Shown one piece after another: positions 37,101 through 51,401 of a stretch of DNA of 51,401 nt. The position numbers and the translations under genes are program-made. Position 1 is the stretch's first letter; every line of letters starts with the position of its first letter. The stretch is from Candidatus Omnitrophota bacterium (lineage in GTDB: Bacteria; Omnitrophota; Gorgyraeia; Aquiviventales; Aquiviventaceae). The notes under the pieces are model-generated. The model did no database searches. It saw only the letters and a list, made by a program, of their open reading frames with translations, and had not been told where the DNA came from. The stretch covers positions 1-51,401 of the forward strand of contig JACQRB010000060.1 in the NCBI GenBank assembly GCA_016206685.1. The letters are read 5' to 3'.

Positions 37101-39735
37101 CAGCCTCCAGCGCCGGGTTGACGCGCGCGACCACCATCAGCGCCCGCGCTTCATCCGGGAAGCTGCCAAACAGCTTGGCGCCCGGTCCCACGGCTTTGAT
37201 GGACGACGCGCCGGGGTCGCCGAACACGAAGACCGTCGTCCCCTCGATGGGATCGTCCACGGACCATGTCGGTCTGCCCTGCGGATCGCCGACCACCATA
37301 CCCGCTTCATGCCCACCGGCGATTTCGCCTTTGGTCTCATAGTTCAGCAGCGTCTCCCGACGATGTGAGAGGGCGGCGACATCGTCGTCAACGCGCTGTG
37401 CGACCAGATCGGCGTCGGCTTTGATCTGGTCAATCCGGTCCTTATCCGCTTTCTTATCCAACCCCTCCGCCTGGCCGCGGTAGCCTGCCTGCACTGTCTT
37501 GATTGCCATCATCTGCGTCGAGAGCTGGGAGTAACCGGCATCTTCCAGTGGGGAGAAACCATCACCCGGCAGTCGTCCCGCGAGAAACTGCGTCGTGAAG
37601 TCGCGGTCCACCTCATGACTCAAGGGCACGACGCCGAATTTCTCCTGCAACCGGTTCCGCAGCTCAGCTTCAGCCAACGCCTGGGCGAGCGCCAGCGGCG
37701 GGGAGCGGGGGGCATCCACGAACGCTTCGGTGTGCCGGGCGATGAGGGCTCTGGTGTCAGCCGCCCGCAAGCGCGTGAAGATATCGGCAAATTTCGCTTC
37801 GAGCGTGGTGCTCACCGCTTGCTCCGCGTCGTGGGGCAAGTTCCAGAACAACTGGGTCCGTCCTGGCAGACCCGGGAACTTCTTGATGGCGTCTTTGCGG
37901 ATACTGGCTTGTTTCTGAGGATTCTCGGGTTTGCCCGCTGCTTCCCAATCTTTCTGGAAGAGCTCCTCGCCGACCGACGCGAGGAGCGTCTTCAAGGCTT
38001 CCGGCAGCGCCTCGTGACCAAGAATAAGATTCTGGAACTCGGTAGCGAGGTGGACCTCGGCGGTGTCATGCGCGGGGAAGTTATTGAAGAGCTCCGGCGC
38101 AAGGGTCGAGGCACCATGTTGCACTGACCCCGCCATATCGCCGAACTCTTCCGAGCGAATGAGGTCAGAGACTTGCTGGAGGAGGGGAAAGGCGACCGGT
38201 ACGTCGCGTATCAGCTTGCCTTGGTCATCGAACCGCCCCCCATGAGCGGCGCCTGTCTGGATGCTGAACGCGTCAGGTCCTGCGACACCCCGTTTGGCGA
38301 GCTCGGCTTTGAGCCCTGTCAAGAACGCTCGGACTTGGCTGAGGGTGGTGTTGGTCTCCTTGCCGACTTCACCAACCTCCACGCCAAGGCCAATGTTGTC
38401 ATCCCCGTGAATTTCTTTGGCGTTCGTCCGGGCAAACTCAATGAGCGCTGCCGAGACGGCGATGTTGTCCTTCTGTTGCTCGAGATCGAGCTCAAACTGT
38501 TGACGTTCCCGTTCGGCTGCGTCGGGCACCCCCGCCTCGGTGAGGAACTTTGGTGTGCCTTCAATCGTCGAGGCGTCAATATCAATGTTCCGGAATCCGG
38601 CGCGCAAGCCTTCCACGATGAGCCCCTTAATCCGTCCAATTTCCTTGGCGGGATCGGCTCGGTGGTTCTTGGCATTGAGCTGGGTGTGGTCCATCTTGAG
38701 GAAGACCGGCGCATCATGCCGTTCCAGCACCGCAGCGGCAAGAAGTTCTGCGGCGTAGGCTGCGTACCGACGGCCGGTATAACCCGTTTCGGAAGCCGCG
38801 AGCTCAAACACCATCGCCCCCACACCCTGCTTGTGAGCGGCGCGAAGGGCGGCGCGCGCGGTCACGAGTCCGCCCACGCGGATGTTCATCGCAGGGATCG
38901 TCCGCTGTGTCACCTCGCGTCGGCCCATCGCCTTGTAGTAGTCCCTGATCGAGGCGGAATAGACGCCGTACGAGGGCGCCAATTCGCGGATAGCCCATTG
39001 AGCGGCTTCGCGCACGGTCTGGTCGTCATGGAGCACCGCGTCATACGCCAGGTCGGCAAACACCGGGCGCAAGGCCTCTTTAACCTTGACCCGTTCCTTG
39101 ACGAACTCCGCCTGGTCCTCGCGCACCCGCAGGCGGGTTGCGCCTCGAGCATCCACATATCGCTCGGTAAAGGGTTCGAGTCGTCGCAGGAGGTCCCCAA
39201 CCGTCGCAAACCGCTCTTTATGCACATAGGTGCCGGTTTCAGGGTTGACTGCGTCGAAGACATCCGCCGAGACGAAGCGTGCGAGCGCCTCCTTTGTGGT
39301 AAGTGCCTCGGCGGCGAGGTCTTCAATCTGGTTGATCGTCCTGGCGGGATGTTGGGCGGCGGTCGCGGCGACGACCAGCCCCGCATCCACGGACCGGACC
39401 TCAGCCGCGGGATCCAAACGCTCCCGCAGGAGCGCCTGGAACCGCTGGACGGCGTCCTCAGAGACCTGGTCAACCTTCAGCCGGTGCGTCACGGAGTGCT
39501 GCTCATTCGCCAACTCCTTGACGGCTTGACGGGCGGCTCTCTTGAGCTCATCTAATCGCGGACGCAGGAGATCTGCGCGTAACTGCCAGGTCGTGTTGAC
39601 GTCAGCCCGCGCCGCCGGCGATCGCAAGAGCGTCTGCGCATACGCCAGCGGTTGCGCCTGCGAAACTGAGAACACGACAGCGACGAAGGATGCCCACCGC
39701 TTGGTCCACGCGCCCCTCAACCATAATCTCCTCAT
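28165..39735 (-). CDS. giant 3,856-aa multidomain protein: signal-peptide-like N-terminus, then class II aldolase-like, GlpX-like, ACP-like, isocitrate lyase-like, ACP-like, unknown ~700-aa region, GAPDH, ACP-like and unknown C-terminal region
   Basis: Single uninterrupted frame with sensible protein-like composition throughout. Recognisable enzyme motifs are listed in the sub-features below. N-terminus: MRRLWLRGAWTKRWASFVAVVFSVSQAQPLAYA-Q. Confidence 0.85.
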   Translation of the reverse strand: MRRLWLRGAWTKRWASFVAVVFSVSQAQPLAYAQTLLRSPAARADVNTTWQLRADLLRPRLDELKRAARQAVKELANEQHSVTHRLKVDQVSEDAVQRFQALLRERLDPAAEVRSVDAGLVVAATAAQHPARTINQIEDLAAEALTTKEALARFVSADVFDAVNPETGTYVHKERFATVGDLLRRLEPFTERYVDARGATRLRVREDQAEFVKERVKVKEALRPVFADLAYDAVLHDDQTVREAAQWAIRELAPSYGVYSASIRDYYKAMGRREVTQRTIPAMNIRVGGLVTARAALRAAHKQGVGAMVFELAASETGYTGRRYAAYAAELLAAAVLERHDAPVFLKMDHTQLNAKNHRADPAKEIGRIKGLIVEGLRAGFRNIDIDASTIEGTPKFLTEAGVPDAAERERQQFELDLEQQKDNIAVSAALIEFARTNAKEIHGDDNIGLGVEVGEVGKETNTTLSQVRAFLTGLKAELAKRGVAGPDAFSIQTGAAHGGRFDDQGKLIRDVPVAFPLLQQVSDLIRSEEFGDMAGSVQHGASTLAPELFNNFPAHDTAEVHLATEFQNLILGHEALPEALKTLLASVGEELFQKDWEAAGKPENPQKQASIRKDAIKKFPGLPGRTQLFWNLPHDAEQAVSTTLEAKFADIFTRLRAADTRALIARHTEAFVDAPRSPPLALAQALAEAELRNRLQEKFGVVPLSHEVDRDFTTQFLAGRLPGDGFSPLEDAGYSQLSTQMMAIKTVQAGYRGQAEGLDKKADKDRIDQIKADADLVAQRVDDDVAALSHRRETLLNYETKGEIAGGHEAGMVVGDPQGRPTWSVDDPIEGTTVFVFGDPGASSIKAVGPGAKLFGSFPDEARALMVVARVNPALEAAVLTLHQVASIEEFLNPSLGIETLISRIAALNGEADLSRVHVTTLTADTGDVAELKAISERTGLQYEVISEGTVQPAVAATLGVKGGPLRIFLRRSGMTEAVWNTLIASAYTGDGAYAGFQVVSPNVKKGMALKDDWSDPEAAKVKTKLIGYRAAYGDINEVLAGKIFSSRQVTEPIAGSFTFASDGRTDQRLPFDVPGVQPEGAVSHVNTLVFASNPQEPGQGYLQLVRSSYGPAAAPAAPAVDPKVLLRDLGRLKTSATYAGQDEIAGQAAQLISRLSTEPTDPNAITLATALLKQQGKLLGGGATTDREDIAGNVKRAVAAALGLSLEAVTGDLEVASHLGAIGSNLVEGEFGIFIPLVDLEAFYHGLREQRTVDQIIAYVEKFGSDSQTAPKQTESTTDLGKIGQDIQWIRDQEQKQAAAAALERETQQAADALARVPAEHRDAVASFSDALLERRVNILSERAEKAPVLRGLLAQVYLGELTGEQAAERAAVLLGIPISLMQEDMAKAPDEASFIQPVPATSELQREAEELEAQWKKEEALYGIKRDYTWEDFVQFYPADLPPEQRPKSMAEAVLRLRGALDIETYATARENAEQFREIVYGKDPEEFIFGLGVYTSQQVAQVLQARQQLKRMGKTKAILGTYGSGWNDAADNNDDEEIYSDLSLYSSPATQVRTVRRVNNAAQFTARQAALQGQPGTRKDWRPLHVVDFEALGSERHAFVKTRAVIKAGAGIGHDENQVPEDKVCGHLKGACNTTTTKMIAGLKGQRLAGDVMGVPFVIIGRTDALHAQFLLRDDPRDRSFILGVTNDREEMTYDQAVANGFAGEWKEVEITPGRFVTELKAGERGTWAPLRNRDQLYLVRPGIERAIATALEFAPYSDLLWFEDHAISMEHAKQFAEAIHAKYPGKPLAFNLSGNLPWDKHLGTEELETFQKELAKLGYKYQFITTFGFHGITYSTYELALDVGLRGMVAYAEHQAKEQAAREHGYTAFDGNRETGTGYWDSIRLMAGTPSPDALALRGSTAGQFYTATPAGRKDPTGGGLSSQQFLKVLEQARAGNESALRRLAVYEKDNHRLFWNQVEGFGIDRVEAEALLEKGRALAPETTPPAAVSLEERRALLRQRLTQQDGAPEISQNTQRFEQVAQERIGLPELGEARFADGRLVNTEEWEQHPTDPTRIRQKAHHNITAIWNSEQGVYDLPGVGGGAPGEVSEAYAIVTIVNQLSIQFPKQIQQTPLRQLYAETLLWLTRQELQNPQAAKPETLASLILEGLEVLHEWGRVWRQASTLHQGPNPLLQKLGVSEKQADAFIAQARAVLDAVQAKTDQLLARYPGGKDALPAGAIWTVRQARGFLHEVLDHQQGIVLDVSWEDGRRVANPRQFLDGEALPDLGVVNADYDSDARRFTLVLARPKVGPHGGATTAKEDFLGDGKKVIAGVLKVKPEDVNATDSLRELILRTTGSGDASVSSEEWVAWQSRNIARALAAESGIPADQLGTFYGLLGDVMPSATVKQVLERTWSFINQTKAPQVGPRGDAPVGKAITLRLPGIGVGDIPRGSDAHRAMLEQIASASKRSLDESHPGWLQRMGDLLYRHGRPPFMVGDVRAAQQAELLSALGRVLSNGEGAAGIAKLGLTVSAQMPEYAGKPIKNIEIVLVDLGTQTHFGDLFEGGAYELSEYEESSATLKIYMTEQYVKTYFPQTGTSAVTETVLHPIFESIFGLTHQEAILSLWWYNAPSSEENGKVRGREILSNVHRAVLEEIGQLAEQGDPRAMQYLLSLALTVPQALPDDSLTVLNDKPLERPPKWIQALQDSYVDTAQRIAQFVQHWVKIIDIDGRRYTYVAGHFVSYEEVPEKVQQGAEARFVAEQIEGSLERLKPLIDVFRSEEFGGVTALVPTVVRSSTDQPMPLVPYRGEKRLLVPPNNIVVGRSPKATGTVIGVNVTPGPTFVHLTLLVPKKVEGYRVVGALRAAGIQVQATEASSMVQDVNATAVVDADTLVVKEVDGLGSLIDLKVFYDSGESGVVRGSLMEPSKFADGLHLKRPIRVAINGAGGRTGLTILRQLLLHHRPDQIQVVAVNARSAEYLKYALQHDTEHGEFSLPIELGKDETGDWLEIQGQRIWVYSQRILKGLPWVRHEVDIAVDATGEFVSKEALAGHLEAGAKRVILTNPSDAKKADEHKADFSLLLGVNEDQLPADAEVIDCASCTTNSYAPPMSIAKQGPYRVLAGVLGTTHAVTGTQRLTDGFDRRRERGRAAPRNMVLTETGADRATVPILPDLAGKLSGTALRVPTGTGSISVVTNIVEVPERMPLTAEGVNEHFRKLAATDQLQGILAVEAGLVGSQQIVGRSESSILLEEGTQVTPLGGNRYLVRQLFWYDNEWGYSARVVDAVYVVGAKLIEAEAAAALLTLEEITARAKRAIAEALDMKPEEVTGDVGGRLLESRSLQALALAEEFNIPPEKRDAFARGLLRQHNFEEQIVPYLGSTLAALRAGGLRGGAPVTKAAEDDAGIEARLEALVRGGRFRYASIGRETIRVLSVGVAWPEEIVGLSERGSVLSIARARFSRLSNGEYEMTGRLEGPTPPRWVDANLVAILAMHSPAPSKKAPRGGVELSLQERRDLLMQAFLRLEEAPREMIEVIDERIAQQHDRLMMDTMNWFASQPIPPVGERNALAQETQRAGEFERQWTEVVGEVTAAIERSDIPEELQGRVESVLSRLRGALGAIVDYAEALEAAFLSSRAQPGAVAPVADERLIAQATLARDPALSGLFENTLATPEQAEAMVDMDHPRVVIVHEAALKERGVPLAIALQELERDLQLVLQEALRTAGIQGLEDWKGSLQFLRVDEADGVEGLLRSLPGRLEHLGVPGAQVALVVGPEDWARDMKLALEQRSRQQVAAFALRPGAASDHAVLDWNVIMAAAEAAVAGDQFSERVRAKFDLVSDGTGVFTIPELAISPAAEAVIRDQEAVLSQA
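29641..29862 (-). other. domain: ACP-like module 3
   Basis: AKRAIAEALDMKPEEVTGDVGGRLLESRSLQALALAEEFNIPPEK is colinear with the ACP helix I-II-III pattern (S in RSL at the DSL position). Confidence 0.45.
29900..30969 (-). other. domain: glyceraldehyde-3-phosphate dehydrogenase (approx. aa 2923-3278)
   Basis: IRVAINGAGGRTG (Rossmann motif); CASCTTNSYAP with the catalytic Cys at 30463-30477; TTHAVTGTQRLTDG; TETGADRA; WYDNEWGYSARVVD. Confidence 0.85.
32720..32820 (-). other. domain: ACP-like module 2 with a DSL motif
   Basis: GKKVIAGVLKVKPEDVNATDSLRELIL. The pre-serine helix and D-S-L match the phosphopantetheine attachment-site pattern. Confidence 0.4.
34066..35453 (-). other. domain: isocitrate lyase-like (ICL/PEP-mutase superfamily; approx. 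aa 1428-1890)
   Basis: YGSGWNDAA...YSDLSLYSS; the catalytic-loop signature KVCGHLKG at 34833-34856 (canonical K-[KR]-C-G-H); IIGRTDA; APYSDLLWFE; FNLSGNLPW; GYKYQFITTFGFH; EHGYTAF...TGTGYWDSI. Confidence 0.8.
35938..36170 (-). other. domain: acyl-carrier-protein-like four-helix module 1 (degenerate)
   Basis: NVKRAVAAALGLSLEAVTGDLEVASHLGAIGSNLVEGEFGIFIP...TVDQIIAYVEK is colinear with the ACP pattern (...EEVT...LGADSLD..EL...EEEFD.EIP...AIDYI). Confidence 0.45.
36470..37530 (-). other. domain: class II FBPase (GlpX)-like, divergent (approx. aa 735-1088)
   Basis: SVDDPIEGTTVFVFGDPGASSIKAVGPGA parallels GlpX DIAVDPIEGTRMTAMGQANALAVLAVG. The downstream segments are colinear, but the GEGEIDEAP and GGAPEG motifs are degenerate. 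Confidence 0.5.
37750..39000 (-). other. domain: class II (metal-dependent) fructose/tagatose-bisphosphate aldolase-like (approx. aa 245-660 of the giant ORF)
   Basis: From memory, these segments parallel E. coli FbaA. TIPAMNIRVG matches ALPAVNCVG. PVFLKMDHT matches PVILHTDHC. NIDIDAST matches HMIDLSE. LGVEVGEVGKE matches LEIELGCTGGEED. IQTGAAHGG matches ASFGNVHGV. VQHGAST matches FHGGSGS. Confidence 0.7.
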
Positions 39736-39756: not shown

Positions 39757-41364
39757 TTAGTGTTGCGCAACGTCCGCCGGCGTTGGTCTCAGTGACGCCG
39801 CGACGGCCTGCACGTCCTCGAAACTCCCATGACCGCTTTTATACTTCAACACGGCGCGGTAGAGCCGGTCATCGCTCGTGTGGGTGACTTTCGGAACCAC
39901 GGCGACCACCCCCACCCCGCGATCCGTCAAGCGCTGCGTAATCTCTGGCGCATGGAATCCGCCGGTGATCAACACGGCAAGCGGCTCCCGCGCCTGGGTC
40001 AGCTTGTCAACGGCACGAGCCGCCAGCGCCTCATCGCGCGCCTGCGCGGCTTCATAAAATTGTTGCAGGGTTGGAAGGGCGGTGCTCAATTCAGACAGTC
40101 GGGTGAAGTCCGGAGCGGGCAACCCCTGGAGGGTCAGTTGCTGCGTCAAGAAATTCGTCCAGTGCAACGCCAAACCCGCCAGGGCAAGCTCCTGAACCCG
40201 TTGATACTCCTCTGGCGAGAGTTTCAGCTCGATGAGTTTCTCGACGAGATCGAATTGCTCGCTGATGAGGCGCAACTGCCGGCTGGCTGGCGTCGAGAGC
40301 AGGCGCTGGCGCAGCCGCTCGGCGAGTTGGTCCAGCTCTCCAGCCAGGAGCGTCGGCTTGAGCTGGGCGCTCTCGTTGACGTAGCTGAGATAGCGAGCCA
40401 GGCGAGGATAGGTGTCCAGGGCGATGTGGGCGTGCTGGGCGAGGTCCTCAAGCTGCGCGTAGAACACCTCTCGCCTCACCGTCCCCTCTTGCATCGCCTT
40501 GGCGCGGGCGAGGAACTCGTTGAAGGACGCGGCATCCACCTGGCGTTTGAGCTGCCTCAAGAAGGCTTGCTGCTCGGTTTGGACGCCCTCAGGCTGGATG
40601 GACTCTTCCAGATGACGAATGGCGCGGAAGCGCGTGACGTGAGGCAGGTCGCCGGTCGCGACGCCGGTTCGCGCCGCCAGACCCGCGAGGAACTCGACAT
40701 GCTCCGCCAACCCCATCTGATGGTCCGCAAAGGCGCGGACCTTGGCGTCAAGTTCGCGCACGGCGGGATCGAAGAGCCGGGGCTCCAGCGCGTCAACCGC
40801 CTGACGCGCGGACGCGACGATGGGCGCCAGGCGCTCCCGCAACGACTCCACCTCCAGGAATGCCTGCACGTTGCGATCGTAGAGATCCTGCTGCTCGACG
40901 CCCCAGAGGATCAAGGGAGCGTCGGAGGCGATGTCGAGATATTCCTCCGCGCTGAGGATGCCGAGCTTCAGATACTTCTCCGCCACCTGCTTGCGGTTCT
41001 CCAGGGGACCGTAGCTGCGCAGGTACGAGAGGCTCACGTCGCCCTCGCCCCCTTCCACCAGAATCAGCTTCAGCCCGTGCTCCTGGATCAGCCGCTGCAG
41101 GATGCCGATCAGGTGTTGTTGGGCTTCGGGGTTGGTGTGGGCTTCTTGCACGTGGATGATGGTCGGGGCGCCTGGAGTGGCGGGGGGATGGGTCTCCACG
41201 ACGTAGCCAAGCTCAGCAGGGATCGTCAGGTTGGCAAGTGGAGCGGCAGGGGCGGTAGCGGCGTCCAGAGAGGAAACAAGGAGGATGGCCGCGACCATGG
41301 CCACCCATGCCATGCGGACGCAGTACACTATCTTCTGAGAGCCGTCTTCCCCCATGGACCTCAC
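39757..41364 (-). CDS. secreted 535-aa hypothetical protein; possible Tiki/TraB/ChaN-like fold (weak)
   Basis: Hydrophobic N-terminus MAWVAMVAAILLVSSL. Contains TIIHVQEAHTNPEAQQHL...LILVEGG early and VLITGGFHAPEITQRL near the C-terminus, reminiscent of the GE-H ... G-x-H bipartite motifs of that superfamily. The start is uncertain: GTG 41364, ATG 41355 or ATG 41313. Confidence 0.6.
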   Translation of the reverse strand: MRSMGEDGSQKIVYCVRMAWVAMVAAILLVSSLDAATAPAAPLANLTIPAELGYVVETHPPATPGAPTIIHVQEAHTNPEAQQHLIGILQRLIQEHGLKLILVEGGEGDVSLSYLRSYGPLENRKQVAEKYLKLGILSAEEYLDIASDAPLILWGVEQQDLYDRNVQAFLEVESLRERLAPIVASARQAVDALEPRLFDPAVRELDAKVRAFADHQMGLAEHVEFLAGLAARTGVATGDLPHVTRFRAIRHLEESIQPEGVQTEQQAFLRQLKRQVDAASFNEFLARAKAMQEGTVRREVFYAQLEDLAQHAHIALDTYPRLARYLSYVNESAQLKPTLLAGELDQLAERLRQRLLSTPASRQLRLISEQFDLVEKLIELKLSPEEYQRVQELALAGLALHWTNFLTQQLTLQGLPAPDFTRLSELSTALPTLQQFYEAAQARDEALAARAVDKLTQAREPLAVLITGGFHAPEITQRLTDRGVGVVAVVPKVTHTSDDRLYRAVLKYKSGHGSFEDVQAVAASLRPTPADVAQH

Positions 41365-41694: not shown

Positions 41695-41737
41695 CGCCTC
41701 TCCTCCCATGGTGGTCTGCCTATCGAAAAGTTCACTG

Positions 41738-41766
41738 ATATTAATACATTAACAAAAGTTTGTCAA
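41738..41766 (-). promoter_or_regulatory. near-consensus sigma70 promoter driving 41694 and downstream genes (small ORF, 535-aa ORF, giant ORF)
   Basis: Minus strand reads TTGACA (41766-41761), 17 nt, TAATAT (41743-41738), inside a ~145-nt strongly A/T-rich spacer in otherwise G+C-rich DNA. Confidence 0.55.
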
Positions 41767-41855
41767 GTGTTTTTTTATATGTGCGAGATGCACATTCTCT
41801 CCACGCATATCTCAGTTATAACTATTTTATTATCAATATCTTATATACATACAAC

Positions 41856-44800
41856 TTAGAGTGACTTTACGGTGATTGCTAAGGCTCTGATGGCGTTACT
41901 GGCGCGTTGAGTGATCGTTTCCTCGCCTGGCTGGAGGTGGTGGCGCCGCTTCCATGCCCACCCTGCTAACGCAAGAACGGTGATGGCCAACCCGATGAGT
42001 CCCGCCGCCCACAGCCCCCAGGATGACGCGCTCCCCGCCCCAACCACCTGCCCAATCCCCTGCGCCAGCAGGGGCGAGACGGCAAACAGCCCCGCCACCG
42101 GCGCCAAGAAGAGTGGCAGCACCCACGAGCGCACCGGAGGAGCGGAGGGGCGCTGGTCCTGATACGCCTTCTTGACCTGCGCAACGGCTTGTTGCGTCAA
42201 CGCCACCTGATAGCCAATCTGGTTGAATTGGCTCCTGGTCAACCCGAACCGTCTGGCTCTCTTCAGATGCGCCAGGACGTTGCGAAAGGCGCCATCCACT
42301 CCGGCGAGCAGCTCCTCGGCGGTCTGGGCGTCATCAATCCGGTTGGCGGCTGGCGCCAACAGGTCCACCAGTTGACGCGGTAGCTCGCGCGCGCGCAGGC
42401 GCTCCGTCTGATCCCACTGCGCAAAAAAGTCGCGCAAGGCGGCTTGAGCCCGATAAAGGAACAGCCTCAGCTCGACGCGCAGCTTGCTCACCTGATTCCA
42501 GGAACGATTGGAAACCTCCGACCCTCCTCCGGCTCCTCCCCCTATAATGAAGGTCCCGCGCGCCTGCGGTCTCCATAAGCCCTCCTCCCAGAGCCCGTGC
42601 CGCTGCAGGAACTCCTGCGCCGGCGGATCACCGAAGGTCATGTTGGGGAGGTTCGAGCCATCCCCGCGTGCCGGGCGCCCATTCGCTTCTCCCGTCGTCT
42701 TCGTTTTGACTGTTTTGTGATGGAAATAGAACGCCGACAGGACGGCGAGGGACACGGTGGCTATTCCCATCAGCGTCCACTGCCCATACGCAAACGGTTG
42801 GTCGAAGTATGCGCTATACACGAACTTCACAGCCACTCCCAGAACCGCGACCACACCCCCCCAGAGGAATACACCTTTCGGCGAAAATCGAGGGTGTGCG
42901 TGATACGCGACCGCCGAGCGAAACGCTTGATTCACAAAGCCATAGACAAAGACGGTGAAGATTCTAAATTCGCTCTCAAATAAGTTCTGCGCAAGATCGT
43001 GAACAGCAAAATGAGTGGCAGACCGAGCTATAACACCCGTTAAAACACGGTCCCACTGTTTACCAGCCGTTGCCTGCTCACGGAGCCGCTTTGCCTCCTC
43101 AAATCTCCCTACCTGCTCGTAAGATCTCGCAGTCAGACGCCGGATACCGATTGGTTCAAACAAATCATAGAGCATGCCGGTCGCAAGCCCGATGCCCGTT
43201 GAAACTATGGCGCGCGGCAACGCTGCCAACGACCCAGTACTGGGAAGGAAGTAATCAATGAGCACAAAGACCAGGGACAAAAACACGGCTTGCAAGGGTC
43301 GGTACAACACATAGGAAAATACCATCAAGGCTTGGAACCGTTTCGGTAAATTGGCGCTCGAAAGGTACACGCCGATTAAACGCGCGCCGCCGGAAGTGAG
43401 CGCCGTGAGCGCCGCCAAGGCAAACGAAGTCCAACCGGGATGTTTCTGTAATTCAAAGTAGTTCTGCCAAAACGTCAGCTGACCCGTCACGACCCAATCA
43501 ATCAGGGAAGCGGATACGAGAAGAGCGCCCGCCACAGCAGAATAGGAAAGGACAGTCCTTACTCGACGGTTCAACTCGTTGCTTGCCGGGTCCGTCGCGT
43601 CTTTCCTCTCCTGAATCCTCTGAACACTAGAAGACATGTAAGTCTTAAACAGAGGAGACGTCACCTGAACCCGGAAGCTCGAGCGGGTGGAGCTGAAGAA
43701 GGGCTCCAGGTCCGTATCCTCGAGCAGCACGGCATCCACCGTGATCCCCTGCCCATCGGGGTGCGTCAGCGCCAAGACAAACGGAAGGGACACCGAGCCG
43801 GTCCGGAACCGTCCAATGAGGAAAGCTCCGCGATTGCGATAAAACCGCGATTGGACCATCTCAACCTGGACTTGGCGAGGATCGATGTGATGATGGCGGA
43901 AGGAGGTCTCGACCTCCCCCGCCGCTAACTGCACGTCACGATCCAGGTCCTCGTACGGCACGCGGAAGCGATAATCCGCAAGGATTCGTCTGATCAGATC
44001 CTGAGTCTGGGGACTTGAATCCGCCGGGGCTCGGCCCGCCAAAAACCGCCGCTCCTGGGGATAGGCAAAGAACTCCGGGACCTGCCCGTTTCGCAGTTGC
44101 TCCTGAATCTTGTAATAAGAGCCTGCTGAAAAGAGATCGCCATGAACGGCTTGAAACTCCTCCCAGAACTGCTCCGGGATGTGCGCGGCGAAGAACTCCT
44201 CAAGACTCGGTTCGCCCTGAGGGTCCGTGTACCCCTGGAGCACAATCTCATTCTTTCCAAGCTCTTCGTAATAGAGGTTCGAGGTATCGTCGTCCTGTAC
44301 GCTCAACTGACGCAGCATGTGTTTAAACGTGATGGCTGTCAGCTGCTGCAGATCATCATAGTCATACAACACGACCCGACCATAGGAGGTGACGCCGAAA
44401 TTCCAAAACTTGAAGTTCCACACCTCCCCTGGGAAGATGCCGGCAGCCATCAGGTCCTTGATACCATTGCCGAAATCCATAAGGACGCGACGGATGATGT
44501 CGGGGTTCTGCGCGTTCTGCTCGAGATAGAGCTGCAAGGGCGTGACCTCCCGCTGCACGTACACATGCTTGATGAGCACGAAGTCGCCTTCCACCGACAC
44601 GCTCTCCGCGGCATGGGCGAGCAGGAACTCAAGCAGCTCTTCGCTAAAATAGCGCTTCTCAAGCCGGAGATTCTCATAGGTCGAGGCATCGAGCATCCGT
44701 CCGACGCGATCGTGCTCACGCACGAAGCGGTACTTGTCCTTCACGAATTGCCTGACCGGATCTTTGATGATCTTGAACACATATCCGGAACCAGGAAGCG

Positions 44801-47800
44801 TAAACACCCCCATGACAGAGCCGTGTTCCCAACCCGCCGCAAGGCGGAAGAGTTGTCCGCTCTCCCGGAGATACTTCCTGAGCTCCTGGTAGAAGAACCG
44901 CTTGGCGAGCTCGTAATACCCGATGCCGGTATAGAGGACGGAGCCATAGAGGTGGGATTGTTTCCTCGCAGGAAGGATGGAGTCCAGGAATGTCACAAGC
45001 TCGCGCAACGCGCTCGGCTGGCGCTCATGGTCACCAGCGAAGTCAATCACGTAGACCAACCCGTTCGCTTCGGCACTCGCCACCCCAACAGCTCGACTGA
45101 CGGCGGAATTGAAAAACGACTGAGCCAGCTCAATGTCAGGCTTCAGGACGCCAAGGGACTTGGTGTACGCCTCCTTGATGGCCTTCCACGTCGCGGGGTC
45201 GTTAAACCGCTCGCCGAGCTGCTGTTTGAGCGCGGGCAACGCGTGCTGCAAGACGTAGCGGTAATACAATCCCACCCGATCCTCATCATCGGAGACCACC
45301 CCCGACCACTCGCGCCGCTCGAAGCGCTCCGAAGCCCTGGCAGCAATCCGGTCGAGTCCCCGCTGGTAACCGTCAAACGCGTTGAGGATCGCCCGGGCGC
45401 CCTGGCGCGCCGCCCACCACGACTGCCCGTGCTTGACCCACCATAGGACAAATCCGCCCAGGCGCGCCATGAGCGCCTGCACGCCCGCCCGGAAGGTTCC
45501 CGTCGGCACGGGCATCCCCAACCACATAGCTGCCAAATTCGCGAGGACGGGCGCGTGTACCGTGGCGTGTGTCGTGGCACGATCGCGTGCTTCCCATTCC
45601 CACCGCCATGCCCCATCGTGGCGCACGAGCCGATAGCCGGCCTGACGGTAGAGGTTGTTGAGCCGCTCAATGGTGTTGCGATGCAGCGGGAGCTGCGTGC
45701 TGTCAAAGAGCTGACTGCCGGTTGGCATACGGATCCGGTGAAAGCCCCGCTGTTCTGCGTAGGTCCGAAAGACCCGTTCAGTCAGGTGTTCAATAGAGCC
45801 AATCTGCTCCCGAAGCGTTGGAGGCAACCGATCAATCTGGAGCCACGCCTGTAACTGCCCGATGTGCGCCACGCGCCTATCTTCGTCGTCGAGTTCAAAG
45901 GTCACCGTGCTCAGCAGCAACGGCGCTGTGGGATCGTCTCGCGCCGGGAGATACGGCAACAGCGCGGTGAGCAGCGACTGATCCGCCAGCCACACCGAGA
46001 ATGCCTCCTGACCCTCAATGTCAGGAAGACCAGTCAGGTCATCATGGACCGGACCTTCGCTGAAGCGGAGCTGCGAGGCGTGGAGCGGATCCTGCAGCGA
46101 CCCGTCAGGTAACTCGAAGTCGTGATGCTTAATGCCCAGCATGTCCCCGTAGCTTGAGTACGTTTTGTCACGGTTGCTGAGCAAGGTGGCTGTGGAGTTC
46201 TTCACATCCCATTTGACACCGAGGCGCTCATCGGCAATGGCAGCGATCGAAAGACCATTAGCCAATGCTTGATCGATGGATGGCCAGCGGTCCGGGTTGA
46301 GCAGGTAATCGCCCATCATGGACAGCGCCTCATCCCATCGCTCGCCGAACCGGCTCCGGAGATAGTCGGCTGTCTGAGGAGGCAGCGTTGACAGGGCGTC
46401 CCCGTCAGGCTGTTTCGAGAAGCCCCTGATACGTTGCAGGGATGCAGCCAATCGCTGCGCCATGCGTTGCGGCAAGCCGACGGACCAGGCAAGCCAGACG
46501 GCGCCCGTGAGCATCACGGATGCCTGGAGGATCACACCGGCGGGGCTGTCCGCCAAGCCGGGATGGAACCACTCCATCAGGGGGCGCAGCGCAAACACCG
46601 CCACACCAAGCAGGACGGGACCCTGACGGCGTTTCCACAGCGGGCTCCTGGCTCCTTTGACCACCTGGACGATGGAAATCTCCTGCGCCAAGAGCCGTTG
46701 CGCATCCCCTCCGCGCTTCTCAAAGGCGGCTCGAAGAGCCGCGTTGATGGCTTCGGTGAGCTCCGGATGCCTCAGCAGCGTGTCATGGCTTGGCACCCAT
46801 CCCAGCAGACGGCTGGTATCGTAGAGCGAAAGGACCAGCGTTCCATCGGGAAGCCGGGTGAAATACGCCAGGTCCTCCTTCGTGCCCAGGGCTTGGAGGA
46901 TCCGCGCCGCCAGCGATTCCGCCTGGTGAGCGCTCTTCTGGGCTTTGACGAGGCGGATGCCGGTGATGCCCTGCCTGGCAATCGGATGCGCGGCTTTCCC
47001 GCGTCCCCGCAAGGCGGCTCGAAGAGCTGCGTTGATGGCTTCGGTGAGCTTCGGATGCTTCGAGAGCGTGCTCACGCTCGGCGATCCTTCCAGCAGACGG
47101 ATGGTGTCTTTAATCGTGAGGGTCACCACCCCGTCTGGGGATCGAGTCACGGTGTCGAGCGCGCCGGCAACCTGCAGGGCATCGAGCAGCCGCAGCGCCA
47201 ATGCCTTGGCATACGCGGACAATTGCTTCGGGTCTTTCGGGGTCTGTTGGGGAGGATAGGGTTTCTTGATGGGCGCCGTTCTGAACGAAGCCAGCTGCCC
47301 GGGTGAAAGCTGCGCGGCGAGGGTCAGGTAGTCCGTTCGGACGGTGAGCACGCGGTCAGACGGTTCCTGTTCCTCGTCCCCTCCTTCTCCCTTTTCTTCA
47401 AGCTCAAGACGGGGATTACCATAGAAACGCACCCTCACCAATTTCACCCAGGTGCCCAATGGAGGATTTTCGAGACGCGTCGCCTCCACTGCCTCAATGA
47501 CGCCAAGCCCGAATCCGTCGTGCACCACCTCCACCCCAAGCTGCCAGGGATCTTCCGGCACCGCGTTGACAGGCGCAGGAACTGGCGCGGGGCGTGGGGC
47601 AACCACCTGCTGAACCTTCTTAGGCGCTTCCTCAACGATTGGAGGCGGCTTCTGGATCTTGTCCTTCGCCTTTGATAGCGGTGGTGTGGTCGGAGCCGGT
47701 TGGATGAGCCGATCGTAGGCGTCACGGATGGCGGTCTCGGCTGCTTGGGGCGAGCCGAATGGAGCGAGCACAGAATCGGAAGGGTCGGCCGTTTGCGCTC

Positions 47801-50800
47801 CCGTGGCATCGGAGGAGAAGGACACGCGAGGATCAGTCGTCACGAACCGCGCATCATTGCGATTGCGCTCCAAGTCCACGCCGCGCAGGACGTCCGGTCT
47901 GCTGGAAGCCGCCGGCGGTTCGGGCGTCCTCTCAATGATCTTGCGTGCCACATCGCGCAACCGCTGCCAGAGGTCCCTGTACCAGGCAAGCCCGAGGATG
48001 CCGGCAAGCAGGACTCCCCCAGATGCGGTATCAGATACGGTAGCTGATACCAAGCCCGCCGCGCCCAACCCCAACGCCGAGAGCCCGAGGAGGATGGGCA
48101 GGAAGAGCTCAGTTCGAAGCGCTCCCTCCTCGCGGGAGAACGTCCCTCCACGATGCAGAGGGACGCGGTTCCGAGTGAGGGCGTTGACCGCGCGAGTGAG
48201 ATAGGCCAACTGCTGGCTTGCAGGACCGATCACCCGGTAGCCGATCTCCTCAGCCTCCTCCACGGGCAAGCGTTCCTCCTGTCTCAGCGCGGCGAAGTAC
48301 GCCGTGACATCCTCCCAGAGCTCGGCGACCTCCTTCAGGCGCTCCGGGATGTCCTCCGCGGCGACCGAGCTCATGGGAGGGAGGGCGGACTCGAGCGCCT
48401 CCAGCCGCCTGAGGAGCGTGTAATAGCGCTTGCCGAGGCGGTCAGAACCCGCCAGGGACGTGAGGAGCGGCTCCACCTCCCTCACCAGGAATTGGCGGAG
48501 CGGCTCGCCTATCGCCGCAAGCTGGTCGCTCTTCTTGCGGCGATAGGTCTCGAGGGACTTGAGCATCCCGACGACGAGCGGCAAGAGCTCCACCGGCGGC
48601 AGCGAGGAGAGAGAATCAAACGGGACGGGTCTGCGCTGTGGGTCGCGCTCCTTCCGGCTGGGGTGCGGCTTAATCGGCATCCTTGCCGCTAGCTCCCGCA
48701 GCTTTTGCTGGAGCTCCTTCAGCGCGGGCGGTGGCGAATCGGTTTGCCGAGCCAGCGCGCGAAGCTCCCCAATCCAGGCGCGGATGGCACGGACGGCTGT
48801 CGGCGCGTTCGCCAACCCCTCAAACTCCTTCAGCACGACCGATTCGAGATCGTCCGCAAGCCGGGCGTACAGGGTGCGTGAATGAATCCTCCCTTGCGCG
48901 AAATCACGGAAGTGGATGAGCAAATCGTCCACAGCCACCTTGAGAAGGAACCCGCGCATGTAGGCGCGCGCCGCGTTGCGCCGGTTGACCGGCTTCTCCT
49001 TGAGCGAGTCTTCAGCATCCATGAACCAGGATTCGTGTTCTTGGACGCGAGTAGCCGCAGCCGCCAGCGCCGGCGGTGCCTGAGGCGCAGGCATTGCTAT
49101 CTCAACCTCGGTCGCCCCAACCAACCGCGCCATCGCCACGAAGAACGCCAGCGGCGTCATCCACGCCAACAACCGGAAGCGCCCGCGCGGCTTGAGGGGT
49201 AGGTTCTGTGTTCCGGGCTGAGCAGGGCGGTCTTCCAGCAACTTGGCGTCCTGCCCCGCGCGCCCTGACGGCGGCTCGCTTGCGTCGAGAACCTGGGAGG
49301 CTCGTTGTCTCGGGGCGCGCAGGAGTCTCCATGACCTCCAGAAGATCGCCCCACCAGCCACCATCAAGCCAAGACCAAGGAGGATGTGAAAACGGTCCAA
49401 GATGTCGAATTGCAGGAGCCGACCAATGCCGGTGAGAGCCACAAACGCGCCCAAGCCGAACAACCCAGCTCCGAAAGGCCCGATGTCTGACCGCGAGACG
49501 ATCTGATCAACGCGAAGTATGATCTTGAACTGCGCACGGCGCTTAGCCCACTGCGCCAGATAGCGAAGGGAAACTTTCGAACGCCTGTCTCTGGCGTGTT
49601 TGATCAGCTCGTCTTCACGCTGGTCGAGGCGTTGCTTGATTGCAGTGAGCAGCCGGCTGCGTTCAACCCCCAGGATCCAGTCTCCCAGCCAGCCGAACAA
49701 CCCCAAGGCGAGGAAGGCGCCACCCGCCAGTAACAGCCAATACATCGCAGGGTTGCTGATCCTGAGGTCAGTCGGCGAGCCGAGGTTAGCCTGGGCCGCG
49801 GCAGCCAGGGAGCCGAGATCGAGCCCAAACGCGCTGGCAAGCCCCAACCCCGCCCACTCCGCCGCCACCAGCAGGAGGGTCAGCTTGACAGCGTTCAGCG
49901 TCGTGGGATATACTGACTGGTGCCATGAAACCCATCGAGGCCATCGACTCCCTCGAGGACGGGCAAAATGAAGAACTCGCGTGAGAAGCTCATTCAAGTC
50001 GATCCAGATATCTGTCACGGAAAACCGTGCTTTGCCGAAACGCGGATTCTCGTCTCCGATATTCTGGAGCTCCTTGGAGCCGGGATTGCTCCCACCGAGA
50101 TCACGTCGAAGTACTTCCCCCGACTTCGTCAAGCGCATGTCCGTGCGGCGCTGCAGTACGCGGCTGAGCAGTTGAACAACCGCGAATTTGTGGCGTTCAG
50201 CAACTCCTAGCCCGTCGTGCGGCTGCTGCTCGACGAAAACATCCCGAAGCCGACTGAAGACGCGCTGCGCGTGCTGGGGCATAGCGTCCTCCGCGCCCCC
50301 GTTCGAACGAAGGATGAGACGATCGCTCGAGCGGCGGAAGCCAAGCGGGTGATCCTCCTCACGCGTGACGACGATTTCTTGAATTTTCTGCCCCCGACGC
50401 ACTCGGGCATCGTCGTGATCCGCATCCACCCGCCTGTTGCCGAAGCCATCACGCGAGCCGTCAGGATGCTCCTGGAAGCCCACCCTGAGCGCTGGCTGCG
50501 AGGGAAAGCCCTGCTTTTGCGCCGCGACGGCTACGAGCTCGTCCGGTAATTTCGTGGCTAATCCCGCCTGCATCCCTGCCGTCGCCTTCGGCGGTGTCGG
50601 AACCGTCGTGGCCCACCCCTGCCCGGCCAAAGCCAGGAAGACCGCCACCGCCGCAAGTGTCAGGCCAAGCACGAGCGGCAGCCAGGCATGGAGGGCGGTG
50701 CCGTGCTGATGAACGGGATGAAAGACGATGACGCCTGATGCCTTTGCAATCGCTTCAATCTCCGCCACCCCAACGTCATACATCCTGGTGTCGGGCGTGA

Positions 50801-51401
50801 TGAGCACCTCACCGATTCCGAGCTCGCGACCCTCCCCGGGGTTGCGCCCATCGAACAGGCGATTGTAGTCCCGCAGCGCCTGCGTGAGCTCGCCGAGCCG
50901 CTCACGAACCTGGCGGAACTGCTTGCTCTGTAACGCTTCCTTCGCCGACGCAATGAGCAGCTCGCAGAAACACAACACTATCCCCAACTGCATACGCTCC
51001 TGCCACCCCTGCTCCTTGCCCCGTCTCAGGGATTCCATGGCGCGGTCATGGAGCTGCTCAAGAGGAATCCGGCTGCCGGCACGATGCACAGTCACCATCC
51101 CCAGCGCCATCGGCGTCATGGCGATGCCTGCCGCTCCTGTCGGCGAAGCGGCAAGCAGCTCAACGACAGTGACGACCAGCAGCGCGAGCCACGGATGCTT
51201 GCGGACAGACTGAACCGGGGAGTACCAGAGGGGCGGCAAATGACCACCTGTGTCCGCCGCCAGTTTCGCGAGGGCTCCACCGGCTTCCTGGCGGACGTGC
51301 GGATGGGGGTCTTGTCGGAGCACCCGTGCAAGGGCGCGCCGGTTGACGCGGCGGACCATGCGGTCGCGCGGATCCATCTCGCCCAGCGCCCTGGCGGCTT
51401 C
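41856..51401 (-). CDS. giant polytopic multidomain ORF (at least 3,173 aa, 5' end beyond window): HEAT repeats, TM segments, tandem ~95-aa repeats, AceK-like module, C-terminal multi-TM region. As read it is continuous, but 49968-50549 is antisense to a toxin-antitoxin pair
   Basis: No stop occurs in this frame from the window edge to 41856. Upstream of the ORF-track Met the frame still reads HEAT-like EAARALGE. Composition is protein-like except across roughly 49900-50560. Whether this is one gene or two is unresolved (see findings). Confidence 0.55.
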   Translation of the reverse strand, partial: EAARALGEMDPRDRMVRRVNRRALARVLRQDPHPHVRQEAGGALAKLAADTGGHLPPLWYSPVQSVRKHPWLALLVVTVVELLAASPTGAAGIAMTPMALGMVTVHRAGSRIPLEQLHDRAMESLRRGKEQGWQERMQLGIVLCFCELLIASAKEALQSKQFRQVRERLGELTQALRDYNRLFDGRNPGEGRELGIGEVLITPDTRMYDVGVAEIEAIAKASGVIVFHPVHQHGTALHAWLPLVLGLTLAAVAVFLALAGQGWATTVPTPPKATAGMQAGLATKLPDELVAVAAQKQGFPSQPALRVGFQEHPDGSRDGFGNRRVDADHDDARVRRGQKIQEIVVTREEDHPLGFRRSSDRLILRSNGGAEDAMPQHAQRVFSRLRDVFVEQQPHDGLGVAERHKFAVVQLLSRVLQRRTDMRLTKSGEVLRRDLGGSNPGSKELQNIGDENPRFGKARFSVTDIWIDLNELLTRVLHFARPRGSRWPRWVSWHQSVYPTTLNAVKLTLLLVAAEWAGLGLASAFGLDLGSLAAAAQANLGSPTDLRISNPAMYWLLLAGGAFLALGLFGWLGDWILGVERSRLLTAIKQRLDQREDELIKHARDRRSKVSLRYLAQWAKRRAQFKIILRVDQIVSRSDIGPFGAGLFGLGAFVALTGIGRLLQFDILDRFHILLGLGLMVAGGAIFWRSWRLLRAPRQRASQVLDASEPPSGRAGQDAKLLEDRPAQPGTQNLPLKPRGRFRLLAWMTPLAFFVAMARLVGATEVEIAMPAPQAPPALAAAATRVQEHESWFMDAEDSLKEKPVNRRNAARAYMRGFLLKVAVDDLLIHFRDFAQGRIHSRTLYARLADDLESVVLKEFEGLANAPTAVRAIRAWIGELRALARQTDSPPPALKELQQKLRELAARMPIKPHPSRKERDPQRRPVPFDSLSSLPPVELLPLVVGMLKSLETYRRKKSDQLAAIGEPLRQFLVREVEPLLTSLAGSDRLGKRYYTLLRRLEALESALPPMSSVAAEDIPERLKEVAELWEDVTAYFAALRQEERLPVEEAEEIGYRVIGPASQQLAYLTRAVNALTRNRVPLHRGGTFSREEGALRTELFLPILLGLSALGLGAAGLVSATVSDTASGGVLLAGILGLAWYRDLWQRLRDVARKIIERTPEPPAASSRPDVLRGVDLERNRNDARFVTTDPRVSFSSDATGAQTADPSDSVLAPFGSPQAAETAIRDAYDRLIQPAPTTPPLSKAKDKIQKPPPIVEEAPKKVQQVVAPRPAPVPAPVNAVPEDPWQLGVEVVHDGFGLGVIEAVEATRLENPPLGTWVKLVRVRFYGNPRLELEEKGEGGDEEQEPSDRVLTVRTDYLTLAAQLSPGQLASFRTAPIKKPYPPQQTPKDPKQLSAYAKALALRLLDALQVAGALDTVTRSPDGVVTLTIKDTIRLLEGSPSVSTLSKHPKLTEAINAALRAALRGRGKAAHPIARQGITGIRLVKAQKSAHQAESLAARILQALGTKEDLAYFTRLPDGTLVLSLYDTSRLLGWVPSHDTLLRHPELTEAINAALRAAFEKRGGDAQRLLAQEISIVQVVKGARSPLWKRRQGPVLLGVAVFALRPLMEWFHPGLADSPAGVILQASVMLTGAVWLAWSVGLPQRMAQRLAASLQRIRGFSKQPDGDALSTLPPQTADYLRSRFGERWDEALSMMGDYLLNPDRWPSIDQALANGLSIAAIADERLGVKWDVKNSTATLLSNRDKTYSSYGDMLGIKHHDFELPDGSLQDPLHASQLRFSEGPVHDDLTGLPDIEGQEAFSVWLADQSLLTALLPYLPARDDPTAPLLLSTVTFELDDEDRRVAHIGQLQAWLQIDRLPPTLREQIGSIEHLTERVFRTYAEQRGFHRIRMPTGSQLFDSTQLPLHRNTIERLNNLYRQAGYRLVRHDGAWRWEWEARDRATTHATVHAPVLANLAAMWLGMPVPTGTFRAGVQALMARLGGFVLWWVKHGQSWWAARQGARAILNAFDGYQRGLDRIAARASERFERREWSGVVSDDEDRVGLYYRYVLQHALPALKQQLGERFNDPATWKAIKEAYTKSLGVLKPDIELAQSFFNSAVSRAVGVASAEANGLVYVIDFAGDHERQPSALRELVTFLDSILPARKQSHLYGSVLYTGIGYYELAKRFFYQELRKYLRESGQLFRLAAGWEHGSVMGVFTLPGSGYVFKIIKDPVRQFVKDKYRFVREHDRVGRMLDASTYENLRLEKRYFSEELLEFLLAHAAESVSVEGDFVLIKHVYVQREVTPLQLYLEQNAQNPDIIRRVLMDFGNGIKDLMAAGIFPGEVWNFKFWNFGVTSYGRVVLYDYDDLQQLTAITFKHMLRQLSVQDDDTSNLYYEELGKNEIVLQGYTDPQGEPSLEEFFAAHIPEQFWEEFQAVHGDLFSAGSYYKIQEQLRNGQVPEFFAYPQERRFLAGRAPADSSPQTQDLIRRILADYRFRVPYEDLDRDVQLAAGEVETSFRHHHIDPRQVQVEMVQSRFYRNRGAFLIGRFRTGSVSLPFVLALTHPDGQGITVDAVLLEDTDLEPFFSSTRSSFRVQVTSPLFKTYMSSSVQRIQERKDATDPASNELNRRVRTVLSYSAVAGALLVSASLIDWVVTGQLTFWQNYFELQKHPGWTSFALAALTALTSGGARLIGVYLSSANLPKRFQALMVFSYVLYRPLQAVFLSLVFVLIDYFLPSTGSLAALPRAIVSTGIGLATGMLYDLFEPIGIRRLTARSYEQVGRFEEAKRLREQATAGKQWDRVLTGVIARSATHFAVHDLAQNLFESEFRIFTVFVYGFVNQAFRSAVAYHAHPRFSPKGVFLWGGVVAVLGVAVKFVYSAYFDQPFAYGQWTLMGIATVSLAVLSAFYFHHKTVKTKTTGEANGRPARGDGSNLPNMTFGDPPAQEFLQRHGLWEEGLWRPQARGTFIIGGGAGGGSEVSNRSWNQVSKLRVELRLFLYRAQAALRDFFAQWDQTERLRARELPRQLVDLLAPAANRIDDAQTAEELLAGVDGAFRNVLAHLKRARRFGLTRSQFNQIGYQVALTQQAVAQVKKAYQDQRPSAPPVRSWVLPLFLAPVAGLFAVSPLLAQGIGQVVGAGSASSWGLWAAGLIGLAITVLALAGWAWKRRHHLQPGEETITQRASNAIRALAITVKSL
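43650..45390 (-). other. domain: isocitrate dehydrogenase kinase/phosphatase (AceK)-like, with non-canonical segment order
   Basis: ILNAFDGYQRGLDRIAARASERFERREW ... FFNSAVSRAV (AceK N-terminal region). VFTLPGSGYVFKIIKD, REHDRVGRMLDA, IKHVYVQREVTPL, FGNGIKDLMAAGIFPGE, NFGVTSYGRVVLYDYDD (kinase core). After the C-terminal-like FAYPQERRF come SRFYRNRGAFLIGRF ... VDAVLLED ... FFSSTRSSFRVQV. Confidence 0.75.
46645..47215 (-). repeat. two tandem ~95-aa protein repeats inside the giant ORF
   Basis: ...SPDGVVTLTIKDTIRLLEGSPSVSTLSKHPKLTEAINAALRAAL... is followed by ...LPDGTLVLSLYDTSRLLGWVPSHDTLLRHPELTEAINAALRAAF.... The DNA cores 47011-47060 and 46724-46773 differ at only 3 of 50 positions. Confidence 0.75.
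49885..49914 (+). promoter_or_regulatory. candidate sigma70 promoter for the DUF433/DUF5615 pair
   Basis: Plus strand reads TTGACA (49885-49890), 18 nt, TATACT (49909-49914), about 54 nt upstream of the DUF433 ATG. Confidence 0.4.
49968..50210 (+). CDS. DUF433-family protein (putative antitoxin)
   Basis: 80 aa. IQVDPDICHGKPCFAETRILVSDILELLGAGIAPTEITSKYFPRLRQAHVRAALQYAAE fits the DUF433 pattern (DP-x-I-x-x-GKP, x-GTRI-x-V, IL, YP-L, AL-YA). GAGGA lies upstream of the ATG. Confidence 0.8.
   Translation: MKNSREKLIQVDPDICHGKPCFAETRILVSDILELLGAGIAPTEITSKYFPRLRQAHVRAALQYAAEQLNNREFVAFSNS
50217..50549 (+). CDS. DUF5615-family PIN-like protein (putative toxin)
   Basis: 110 aa with a GTG start. MRLLLDENIPKPTEDALRVLGHSV...RVILLTRDDDF...HSGIVVIR fits the DUF5615 pattern (LLDENLP, G-H-x-V, ILVT-x-D-x-DF, G-V-I-x-L). 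It starts 6 nt after the DUF433 stop, which is the usual pairing. Confidence 0.78.
   Translation: MRLLLDENIPKPTEDALRVLGHSVLRAPVRTKDETIARAAEAKRVILLTRDDDFLNFLPPTHSGIVVIRIHPPVAEAITRAVRMLLEAHPERWLRGKALLLRRDGYELVR
51250..51401 (-). other. domain: HEAT (PBS-lyase-type) repeats at the window edge
   Basis: EAARALGEMDPRDRMV...ALARVLRQDPHPHVRQEAGGALAKL shows the typical D-x-x-x-VR-x-x-A-x-x-AL periodicity. Confidence 0.5.

Follow-up and report, generated by a model that had tools for sequence, protein, structure and literature searches.

AceK is a textbook bacterial protein kinase/phosphatase, AMP-regulated and able both to phosphorylate and to dephosphorylate isocitrate dehydrogenase (IDH). The enzyme of Escherichia coli (3EPS, 3LCB and 6K5L) is soluble and 578 amino acids (aa) long, and an N-terminal helical bundle (segment A), an alpha/beta subdomain of the regulatory domain (segment B) and the last regulatory (linker) helices together with the kinase (segment C) follow one another in the order A-B-C. 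The regulatory domain has been described as a single domain without structural homologues (PMC6591243), and the substrate-recognition loop, residues 484-510, binds the IDH dimer (PMC9138534). Very long “multi-enzyme metabolic cluster” proteins have been reported from the phylum Omnitrophota (bioRxiv 10.64898/2026.06.07.730766; also 10.1101/2023.11.21.568195); in these, many transmembrane (TM) helices serve as anchors for large enzyme domains in the cytoplasm, and a single chain is tiled with metabolic enzymes (bioRxiv 10.64898/2026.06.07.730766). AceK, isocitrate lyase (ICL) and permuted domains are not mentioned in these papers, and no paper was found to mention AceK in permuted form or as part of the giant proteins of Omnitrophota. 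Here, the gene G2 was analyzed, which lies on the minus strand of a metagenome contig of 51,401 nucleotides (JACQRB010000060.1; the whole contig is referred to as the window). Its AceK-type module carries all three segments and both Pfam families of the E. coli enzyme, in the order A-C-B and within a TM-anchored protein of ~2660 aa. The comparisons below indicate that this order is genuine, that it is so far unique to a single occurrence, and that it represents a non-circular permutation of segments.

Segment profiles cut from canonical AceKs were used as hidden Markov models (HMMs) to map the module (Table 1; residue numbers of G2 follow the 3173-aa open reading frame (ORF) at 41856..51377). 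Segment A was matched over profile positions 8-115 of 121 (86 bits), segment C over positions 1-305 of 309, aligned to residues 267-570 of 3eps (169 bits), and segment B over positions 2-116 of 117 (118 bits). The order of the three matches was A-C-B, not the canonical A-B-C, and the place that B occupies in every other AceK was taken by the A-to-C linker. Pairwise alignment to 3eps using phmmer gave three pieces (module numbered from aa 2000): 5-97 matched 21-110, 128-447 matched 267-570, and 438-576 matched 124-264. This three-piece, non-colinear pattern was found against all of the 48 canonical AceKs of the first homologue search. The only two Pfam families in G2 were AceK_kinase (PF06315; aa 2177-2441, 4e-60, 203.9 bits against a gathering threshold of 29.3, profile positions 3-256 of 256) and AceK_regulatory (PF20423; 1.8e-57, 195.3 bits against 25), with E-values far beyond chance. 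AceK_regulatory matched in two separated stretches, the better of which (profile positions 137-257) was located at aa 2455-2575, downstream of the kinase domain. When 15 homologues were permuted in silico to A-C-B, they aligned with G2 from end to end at 32-40% identity, and the 53 invariant columns were distributed across all three segments. The initial annotation, made from the letters of the window, had placed an AceK-like module of about 580 aa, the length of a complete AceK, at 43650-45390, and had described its segments as rearranged and permuted rather than truncated. The mapped segments cover 43653-45410 and total 586 aa, equal to one complete AceK; each of the three is complete by profile coverage, and the comparison with AceK profiles that it had proposed returned non-colinear coordinates. 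All of the motifs it had quoted were present (FFNS, ALRELVTFLDSILP, FKIIKD, HDRVGRM, YDYDD, YPQERRF, FYRNRGAFLIGRF, VDAVL, and FFSSTRSSFRV).

To place this order within the family, 197 AceK-family proteins were classified. They came from a word-indexed search of 5.8 billion clusters and from a full HMMER scan of 1.84 billion representatives, of whose 1281 matches the best 150 were used. The order A-B-C was found in 165 of the 197, and A-C-B only in G2 and its database twin P0050 (NCBI nr). The remaining proteins were fragments (BC, C), split matches, two tandem ABCABC proteins, and two proteins without B. Among the best 150 of the 1281 representative-scan matches, only P0050 matched the module in one colinear stretch; since a relative of the same order outscores a canonical one at equal divergence, it would be listed, and none is present at detectable similarity. 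Relatives with the same junctions were absent from the scan of genome contigs, and the scan of metagenomes gave only a 2.2-kb contig, L001.

Classical circular permutants, and the permuted motif order of the DNA methyltransferase classes, arise via duplication and deletion. G2 resembles such proteins in that the elements of the fold are kept while their order in the sequence is changed, and a tandem precursor is seen in the AceK family: P0051 (1228 aa) and P0129 (1034 aa, annotated as Ca. Omnitrophota) are ABCABC proteins of the Omnitrophota type. Unlike in circular permutants, however, the new order is not a rotation. Rotation of A-B-C gives B-C-A or C-A-B, so A-C-B requires internal and terminal deletions or the direct transposition of B. 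The order most likely arose from a tandem duplication to A-B-C-A-B-C, after which the first copy lost its B and the second copy its A and C. Alternatively, the ~350-bp piece coding for B would have been transposed directly.

The protein that carries the module was delimited as follows. The uninterrupted ORF of G2 extends to 51377, and part of the extension is antisense to two other genes, DUF433 and DUF5615/PIN-like, which form a toxin-antitoxin-type pair within the 5′ part of the 3173-aa ORF; the ORF is open throughout. The stretch antisense to this pair (ORF aa ~276-470) is not G2 protein, and the 3173-aa ORF therefore overstates the protein, the gene encoding ~2663 aa. The twin P0050 is 100% identical to G2, 2663 aa long, and starts at 49847. 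The first 260 residues of the ORF (50598-51377) still look like protein, since they include TM helices and a HEAT-like stretch, but have no family match, and the DUF433/DUF5615 cassette was possibly inserted into an older, longer gene. Searches with aa 1150-1999 and aa 2440-3173 returned no homologues, save one canonical AceK that matched B. A hydropathy scan of the 2663-aa protein gave ~17 hydrophobic segments, mostly hairpins with short loops and Lys/Arg-rich outer flanks. The AceK module lies within a soluble stretch of ~975 residues between two membrane elements, the hairpin (aa 1586-1633) upstream and the TM helix beginning at aa 2608 downstream, in keeping with the flanking TM helices of the initial annotation, and both of these elements carry Arg/Lys on the side of the module. 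Two copies of a ~68-residue repeat were also seen, at 46707-46913 and 46995-47198 (aa 1394-1461 and 1489-1557), with the pattern ...RLPDG..L.L.DT.RLL...HP.LTEAINAALRAA...; by eye only, small repeated modules in the giant proteins P0052 and P0114 resemble it.

Taken as a whole, G2 is probably an inner-membrane-anchored protein of ~2660 aa with a complete AceK-type kinase/phosphatase in the order A-C-B, in which B is docked back on A and C. The large soluble regions, tethered by TM hairpins, would face the cytoplasm. Segment B, of ~115 residues, would have moved from between A and C to the C-terminal end, and linkers of 26 residues (A-C) and 13 residues (C-B) would allow it to dock onto A and C and rebuild the AMP-sensing regulatory domain. 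With this domain rebuilt, the module would still be an ATP-dependent kinase/phosphatase. With Glu at the place of the catalytic Asp, an enlarged catalytic loop and a new recognition loop, its target would probably be either a divergent IDH or some other partner, possibly an enzyme of the neighboring giant protein G1, which carries isocitrate lyase, glyceraldehyde-3-phosphate dehydrogenase (GAPDH) and aldolase modules.

Several observations weigh against this reading, and they concern the topology, the placement of B, the catalytic residues and the number of sequences in which the order is found. In the topology check that the initial annotation had proposed, the module is predicted to lie on the cytoplasmic face, as would be expected of an enzyme that uses ATP and in agreement with the long proteins of Omnitrophota; this follows from the Arg/Lys on the module side of both flanking TM elements, using the hydropathy scan and the positive-inside rule only. 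In the AlphaFold2 (AF2) model of the whole module, built with an alignment of homologues in canonical order, the predicted local distance difference test (pLDDT) was 82-91 for A, 85-96 for C and 28-51 for the A-to-C linker, and it was only 30-55 for B, which was not placed with confidence. In the close relative L001 (3-2105), the kinase is followed by a TM helix, an NHL-repeat β-propeller and a second TM helix, and no B is found there. Both observations would be expected if A and C formed an AceK derivative lacking B, and if the C-terminal B were an orphan left from a second, largely deleted copy and did not pack on A and C; such a module would work, if at all, with neither a canonical regulatory domain nor AMP control. 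The tandem proteins P0051 and P0129 would provide the duplicated ancestor for such a remnant, and two proteins with A and C and without B, P0099 (427 aa) and P0165 (464 aa), do exist. However, the internal deletion in these two removes the first ~40 positions of C along with B (P0165 keeps the first ~35 residues of B), which is more in keeping with deletion variants or fragments from assembly than with a stable class that lacks B. The low confidence of B in the whole-module run is explained by the alignment, no row of which covers B. When B was modelled on its own (aa 2440-2600) with homologues that cover it, the pLDDT was 88-97 over residues 21-120, a core of ~100 residues. In a Foldseek search with this model, all 10 PDB matches at E ≤ 0.001 were AceK, nine of them with a root mean square deviation (rmsd) of 2.1-2.9 Å over ~122 columns. 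By this model B is an intact AceK subdomain on its own. It also keeps 6 of the 6 positions that are conserved in at least 90% of 141 canonical standalone AceKs (5 of 5 in A and 44 of 52 in C). Such conservation, with a confident AceK-type fold, would be unexpected for a functionless relic, and an orphan B is rather doubtful as an explanation.

The models of A with C and of B each superpose on the E. coli AceK crystal structures. The top Foldseek matches of the whole-module model were 6k5l and 3eps; against 6k5l_A, the TM-score was 0.63 when normalized by the query and 0.67 when normalized by the target, with an rmsd of 3.6 Å. Segments A and C make up ~70% of the model, which sets a ceiling of ~0.70-0.76 on the score, and values near this ceiling indicate that A sits on C as in AceK. 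The next class of matches, generic protein kinases, scored ~0.2, which bears out the earlier claim that the module is AceK-like in particular and not simply of a kinase fold. By inference, B would dock in its canonical place.

The catalytic residues were compared with those of E. coli AceK, to which the module is 26-38% identical; the roles of K336, D457, N462, D475 and D477 were taken from PMC6591243. The ATP-binding lysine is kept (K2202, at 44772-44774, equivalent to K336), as are the metal ligands N2326, D2339 and D2341 (equivalent to N462, D475 and D477). Other features weigh against the proposed activity. Residue E2318 stands at the place of the catalytic Asp457, and three residues are inserted in the catalytic loop, which reads PGEVWNFKFWNFGVT in G2 and PGDMLLKNFGVT in canonical AceKs; the profile alignment puts two of the three between the Lys and Asn462. 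In E. coli AceK, the mutation D457A abolished phosphatase activity (PMC6591243). The recognition loop is replaced by a longer sequence that is unrelated to residues 484-510 of the E. coli enzyme and to the DxFPEE motif, and conserved positions were lost in this region (P2355L, D2377E, F2379V, and P2380L). The score for the NCBIfam equivalog PRK02946, spread over three stretches, was 425.5 bits and so below the cutoff of 488, and there is no IDH gene within the 51-kb window. A catalytically dead module, kept as a structural or binding element in which the permutation was tolerated because activity is irrelevant, would account for the changed Asp457, the inserted residues, the 8 of 52 conserved kinase positions that differ, the replaced recognition loop and the score below the equivalog cutoff, and the rest of G2, which has no detectable homologues, would then belong to a fast-evolving protein. 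This explanation is quite unlikely, given that the ATP-binding lysine and the three metal ligands were retained and that the change from Asp to Glu is conservative. In a loop census of 178 homologues, Glu was also found at this position in the standalone AceKs P0089 and P0146 and in P0080; the census also found a W-N-[FY]-G loop variant in P0015, P0037 and P0054.

The only close relative further argues against decay. L001 (P0049; JGI contig Ga0114945_10051084) is 77% identical to G2 over the C-terminal half of the kinase, its catalytic loop is identical, and its replacement recognition loop is almost identical. The ratio of nonsynonymous to synonymous substitution rates (dN/dS) between the two was 0.22 over 175 codons. 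This ratio and the loops common to both indicate that the kinase half is under purifying selection and that its peculiarities are features of the lineage and not signs of decay. As the end of this contig interrupts the kinase, the comparison covers the region from mid-kinase onward. The similarity stops at G2 aa ~2455, exactly the C-B junction, so that the modules downstream of the kinase have recently been exchanged in this lineage. By homology, the module belongs to the AceK family, from which it departs in segment order, equivalog score and IDH-recognition loop, and the most fitting description is an AceK-derived kinase/phosphatase whose substrate is uncertain.

The last point against the proposed reading is that the order A-C-B is known from one sequence, so any selective maintenance of the order itself would be hypothetical. 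A misjoin of metagenomic reads could create such an order, since the sequence comes from one contig and neither junction occurs in any independent sequence. We consider this very improbable. Both junctions are in frame, the ORF is free of stops for more than 8 kb, and at or near the junctions there are no repeats, direct or inverted, by which an assembler could be misled. The codon usage is uniform, with a GC content at third codon positions of 0.79 in A, 0.73 in C and 0.73 in B. In addition, the breakpoints fall exactly at the structural boundaries of the segments and leave plausible linkers.

Although the permutation was found once, the embedding of AceK in giant proteins is recurrent. Among the representative-scan matches listed, AceK is embedded in more than 15 other long proteins, all in canonical order, including P0052 (3862 aa), P0112 (4875 aa), P0114 (6037 aa), P0167 (4536 aa), P0168 (4574 aa), P0104 (2864 aa), P0175 (2769 aa), P0059 (2461 aa), P0195 (1763 aa), and others of ~800-1200 aa; P0104, like P0129, is annotated as Ca. 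Omnitrophota. As in G2, the AceK of these giants lies among unrelated modules and TM segments, and its recognition loop is often divergent. They differ from G2 in order, which is A-B-C in P0052, P0112, P0114, P0168, P0167, P0175, P0059, P0104 and P0129, and they show no resemblance to G2 outside the AceK module. In P0112 (JGI), AceK (994-1627), malate synthase (1668-2305), ICL (2364-2892) and an aldo/keto reductase are joined in one chain; the whole aceBAK set is thus fused, between repeated TM modules. In the window, the link to the glyoxylate shunt consists of the ICL module in the neighboring G1, and no malate synthase is present. The association of AceK with ICL is thus kept in this odd class of proteins, which argues that the module still concerns the isocitrate branch point. 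A more specific proposal is that G2 represents a naturally occurring functional non-circular permutation, tethered to the membrane, whose new loop would control the ICL, GAPDH or aldolase of G1 and no longer, or not only, IDH; as a complete statement this is unlikely. Recurrent inter-domain motifs were seen in other giants, namely GARLA (nine times in P0114 and five times in P0175), RSELR (five times in P0059, with a variant in P0129 seen by eye) and a D-x-AML-type motif in P0167, and they may serve in processing or docking. A search of G1 and G2 for a repeated linker motif of the GARLA/RSELR type found none. Five AceK homologues of near-normal length (P0063, P0067, P0115, P0118, and P0149; 650-700 aa) carry a hydrophobic N-terminal extension resembling a signal or anchor, which points to membrane tethering of AceK-like enzymes beyond the giants.

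Table 1. Positions of G2, its AceK-type module and neighboring features in the window (aa of G2 in the numbering of the 3173-aa ORF).
Feature	Position	Strand	Residues	Remarks
G2	41856..49847	-	2663 aa	Giant polytopic protein with AceK-like module
Segment A	45081..45410	-	aa 1990-2099	N-terminal four-helix part of regulatory domain; ~ E. coli AceK ~21-110
A-to-C linker ASAEANGLVYVIDFAGDHERQPSALR	45003..45080	-	aa 2100-2125	26 residues; no segment-profile match
Segment C	44040..45002	-	aa 2126-2446	Last regulatory helices and kinase/phosphatase domain; ~ E. coli AceK 267-570
Derived catalytic/metal-binding stretch PGEVWNFKFWNFGVTSYGRVVLYDYDD	44352..44432	-	aa 2316-2342	
Substrate-recognition loop replacement	44193..44336	-	aa 2348-2395	Longer; unrelated to E. 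coli 484-510 and DxFPEE motif
C-to-B linker AGRAPADSSPQTQ	44001..44039	-	aa 2447-2459	13 residues
Segment B	43653..44000	-	aa 2460-2575	Relocated alpha/beta subdomain; ~ E. coli AceK ~124-264
TM hairpin upstream of module	46479..46622	-	aa 1586-1633	Lys/Arg-rich on both outer sides
First TM helix after module	43500..43556	-	aa 2608-2626	NRRVR before it; more TM segments to aa 3139
DUF433 gene	49968-50210	+		Pfam 8.6e-20
DUF5615/PIN-like gene	50217-50549	+		Pfam 1e-13
ORF M	39757..41364	-	535 aa	Between G2 and G1; N-terminal TM helix; weak ChaN/Tiki-like match
G1	28165..39735	-	3856 aa	ORF list
G1, class-II fructose-bisphosphate aldolase (FBA-II) module			aa 279-570	Pfam
G1, ICL module			aa ~1449-1910	Catalytic Cys-Gly-His (CGH) kept
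G1, GAPDH module			aa 2926-3285	SCTTN motif kept

The rest of the window is that of an ordinary bacterial chromosome, with genes for RodA, MreC, MreB, AroA, an aminotransferase, LacI and ROK regulators, GH94 and an ABC sugar transporter, and the two very long minus-strand ORFs G1 and G2 fill its last 23 kb. In species-representative genomes, MreB, a single marker, was most similar to that of a Ca. Omnitrophota metagenome-assembled genome (MAG) (86%), followed by a MAG labelled Planctomycetales (83%) and other Omnitrophota (69-74%). As these matches were mainly Ca. Omnitrophota MAGs, the host is most likely an uncultured relative of Omnitrophota. In G1, no TM segment was predicted by the hydropathy scan, and more than 2000 aa had no family match. 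A permuted ICL module was considered for G1 as well and was ruled out, the module being colinear with PDB 7cmx. Between G2 and G1 lies ORF M, whose homologues (1e-51 to 1e-20) are the N-terminal ~500 aa in five giants, P0114, P0112, P0168, P0052 and P0075. These five come from other metagenomes and all carry AceK; in the window, ORF M is a separate gene just upstream of G1. ORF M and G1 share a frame and are separated by a TAA stop, which raised the option of a single stop-split ORF, but an AGGAG Shine-Dalgarno sequence precedes the ATG of G1, and the two are therefore more likely separate cistrons. The intergenic region after the stop of G2 (41365-41855) is AT-rich and holds a TTGACA-17-TATTAAT-like promoter, after which an ORF of 112 aa with a signal peptide is found at 41371-41709 (minus strand). 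With this promoter-like element, G2 seems to be a transcription unit apart from the small ORF, ORF M and G1.

G2 shares with the long proteins of Omnitrophota the multiple TM helices that anchor large soluble regions (in G2 by hydropathy only), and by MreB the phylum is the same or a related one. It differs in that G2 and G1 are much shorter than the proteins of at least 10,000 aa emphasized in the preprints, and G1 lacks a TM segment. The tiling by enzyme families seen in those giants is also limited here, with only the AceK families in G2 and FBA-II, ICL and GAPDH in G1. If the permuted module folds and works as proposed, the AceK regulatory domain would consist of two separable pieces, the helical bundle and the alpha/beta subdomain, that reassemble whatever their order in the chain, and the natural A-C-B variant would lend itself directly to testing the assembly of the AMP-sensing interface. 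The variant would also be a rare non-circular example among known permuted proteins, one with a tandem-duplicate precursor visible in its relatives. On the unlikely reading in which the module controls the enzymes of G1, giants of the Omnitrophota type would be self-regulating, membrane-bound metabolons that evolve by shuffling pieces smaller than a domain. The recurrence of AceK in Omnitrophota-like giants links an established regulator to this phylum's giant proteins, which are as yet unexplained, and suggests assays for them.

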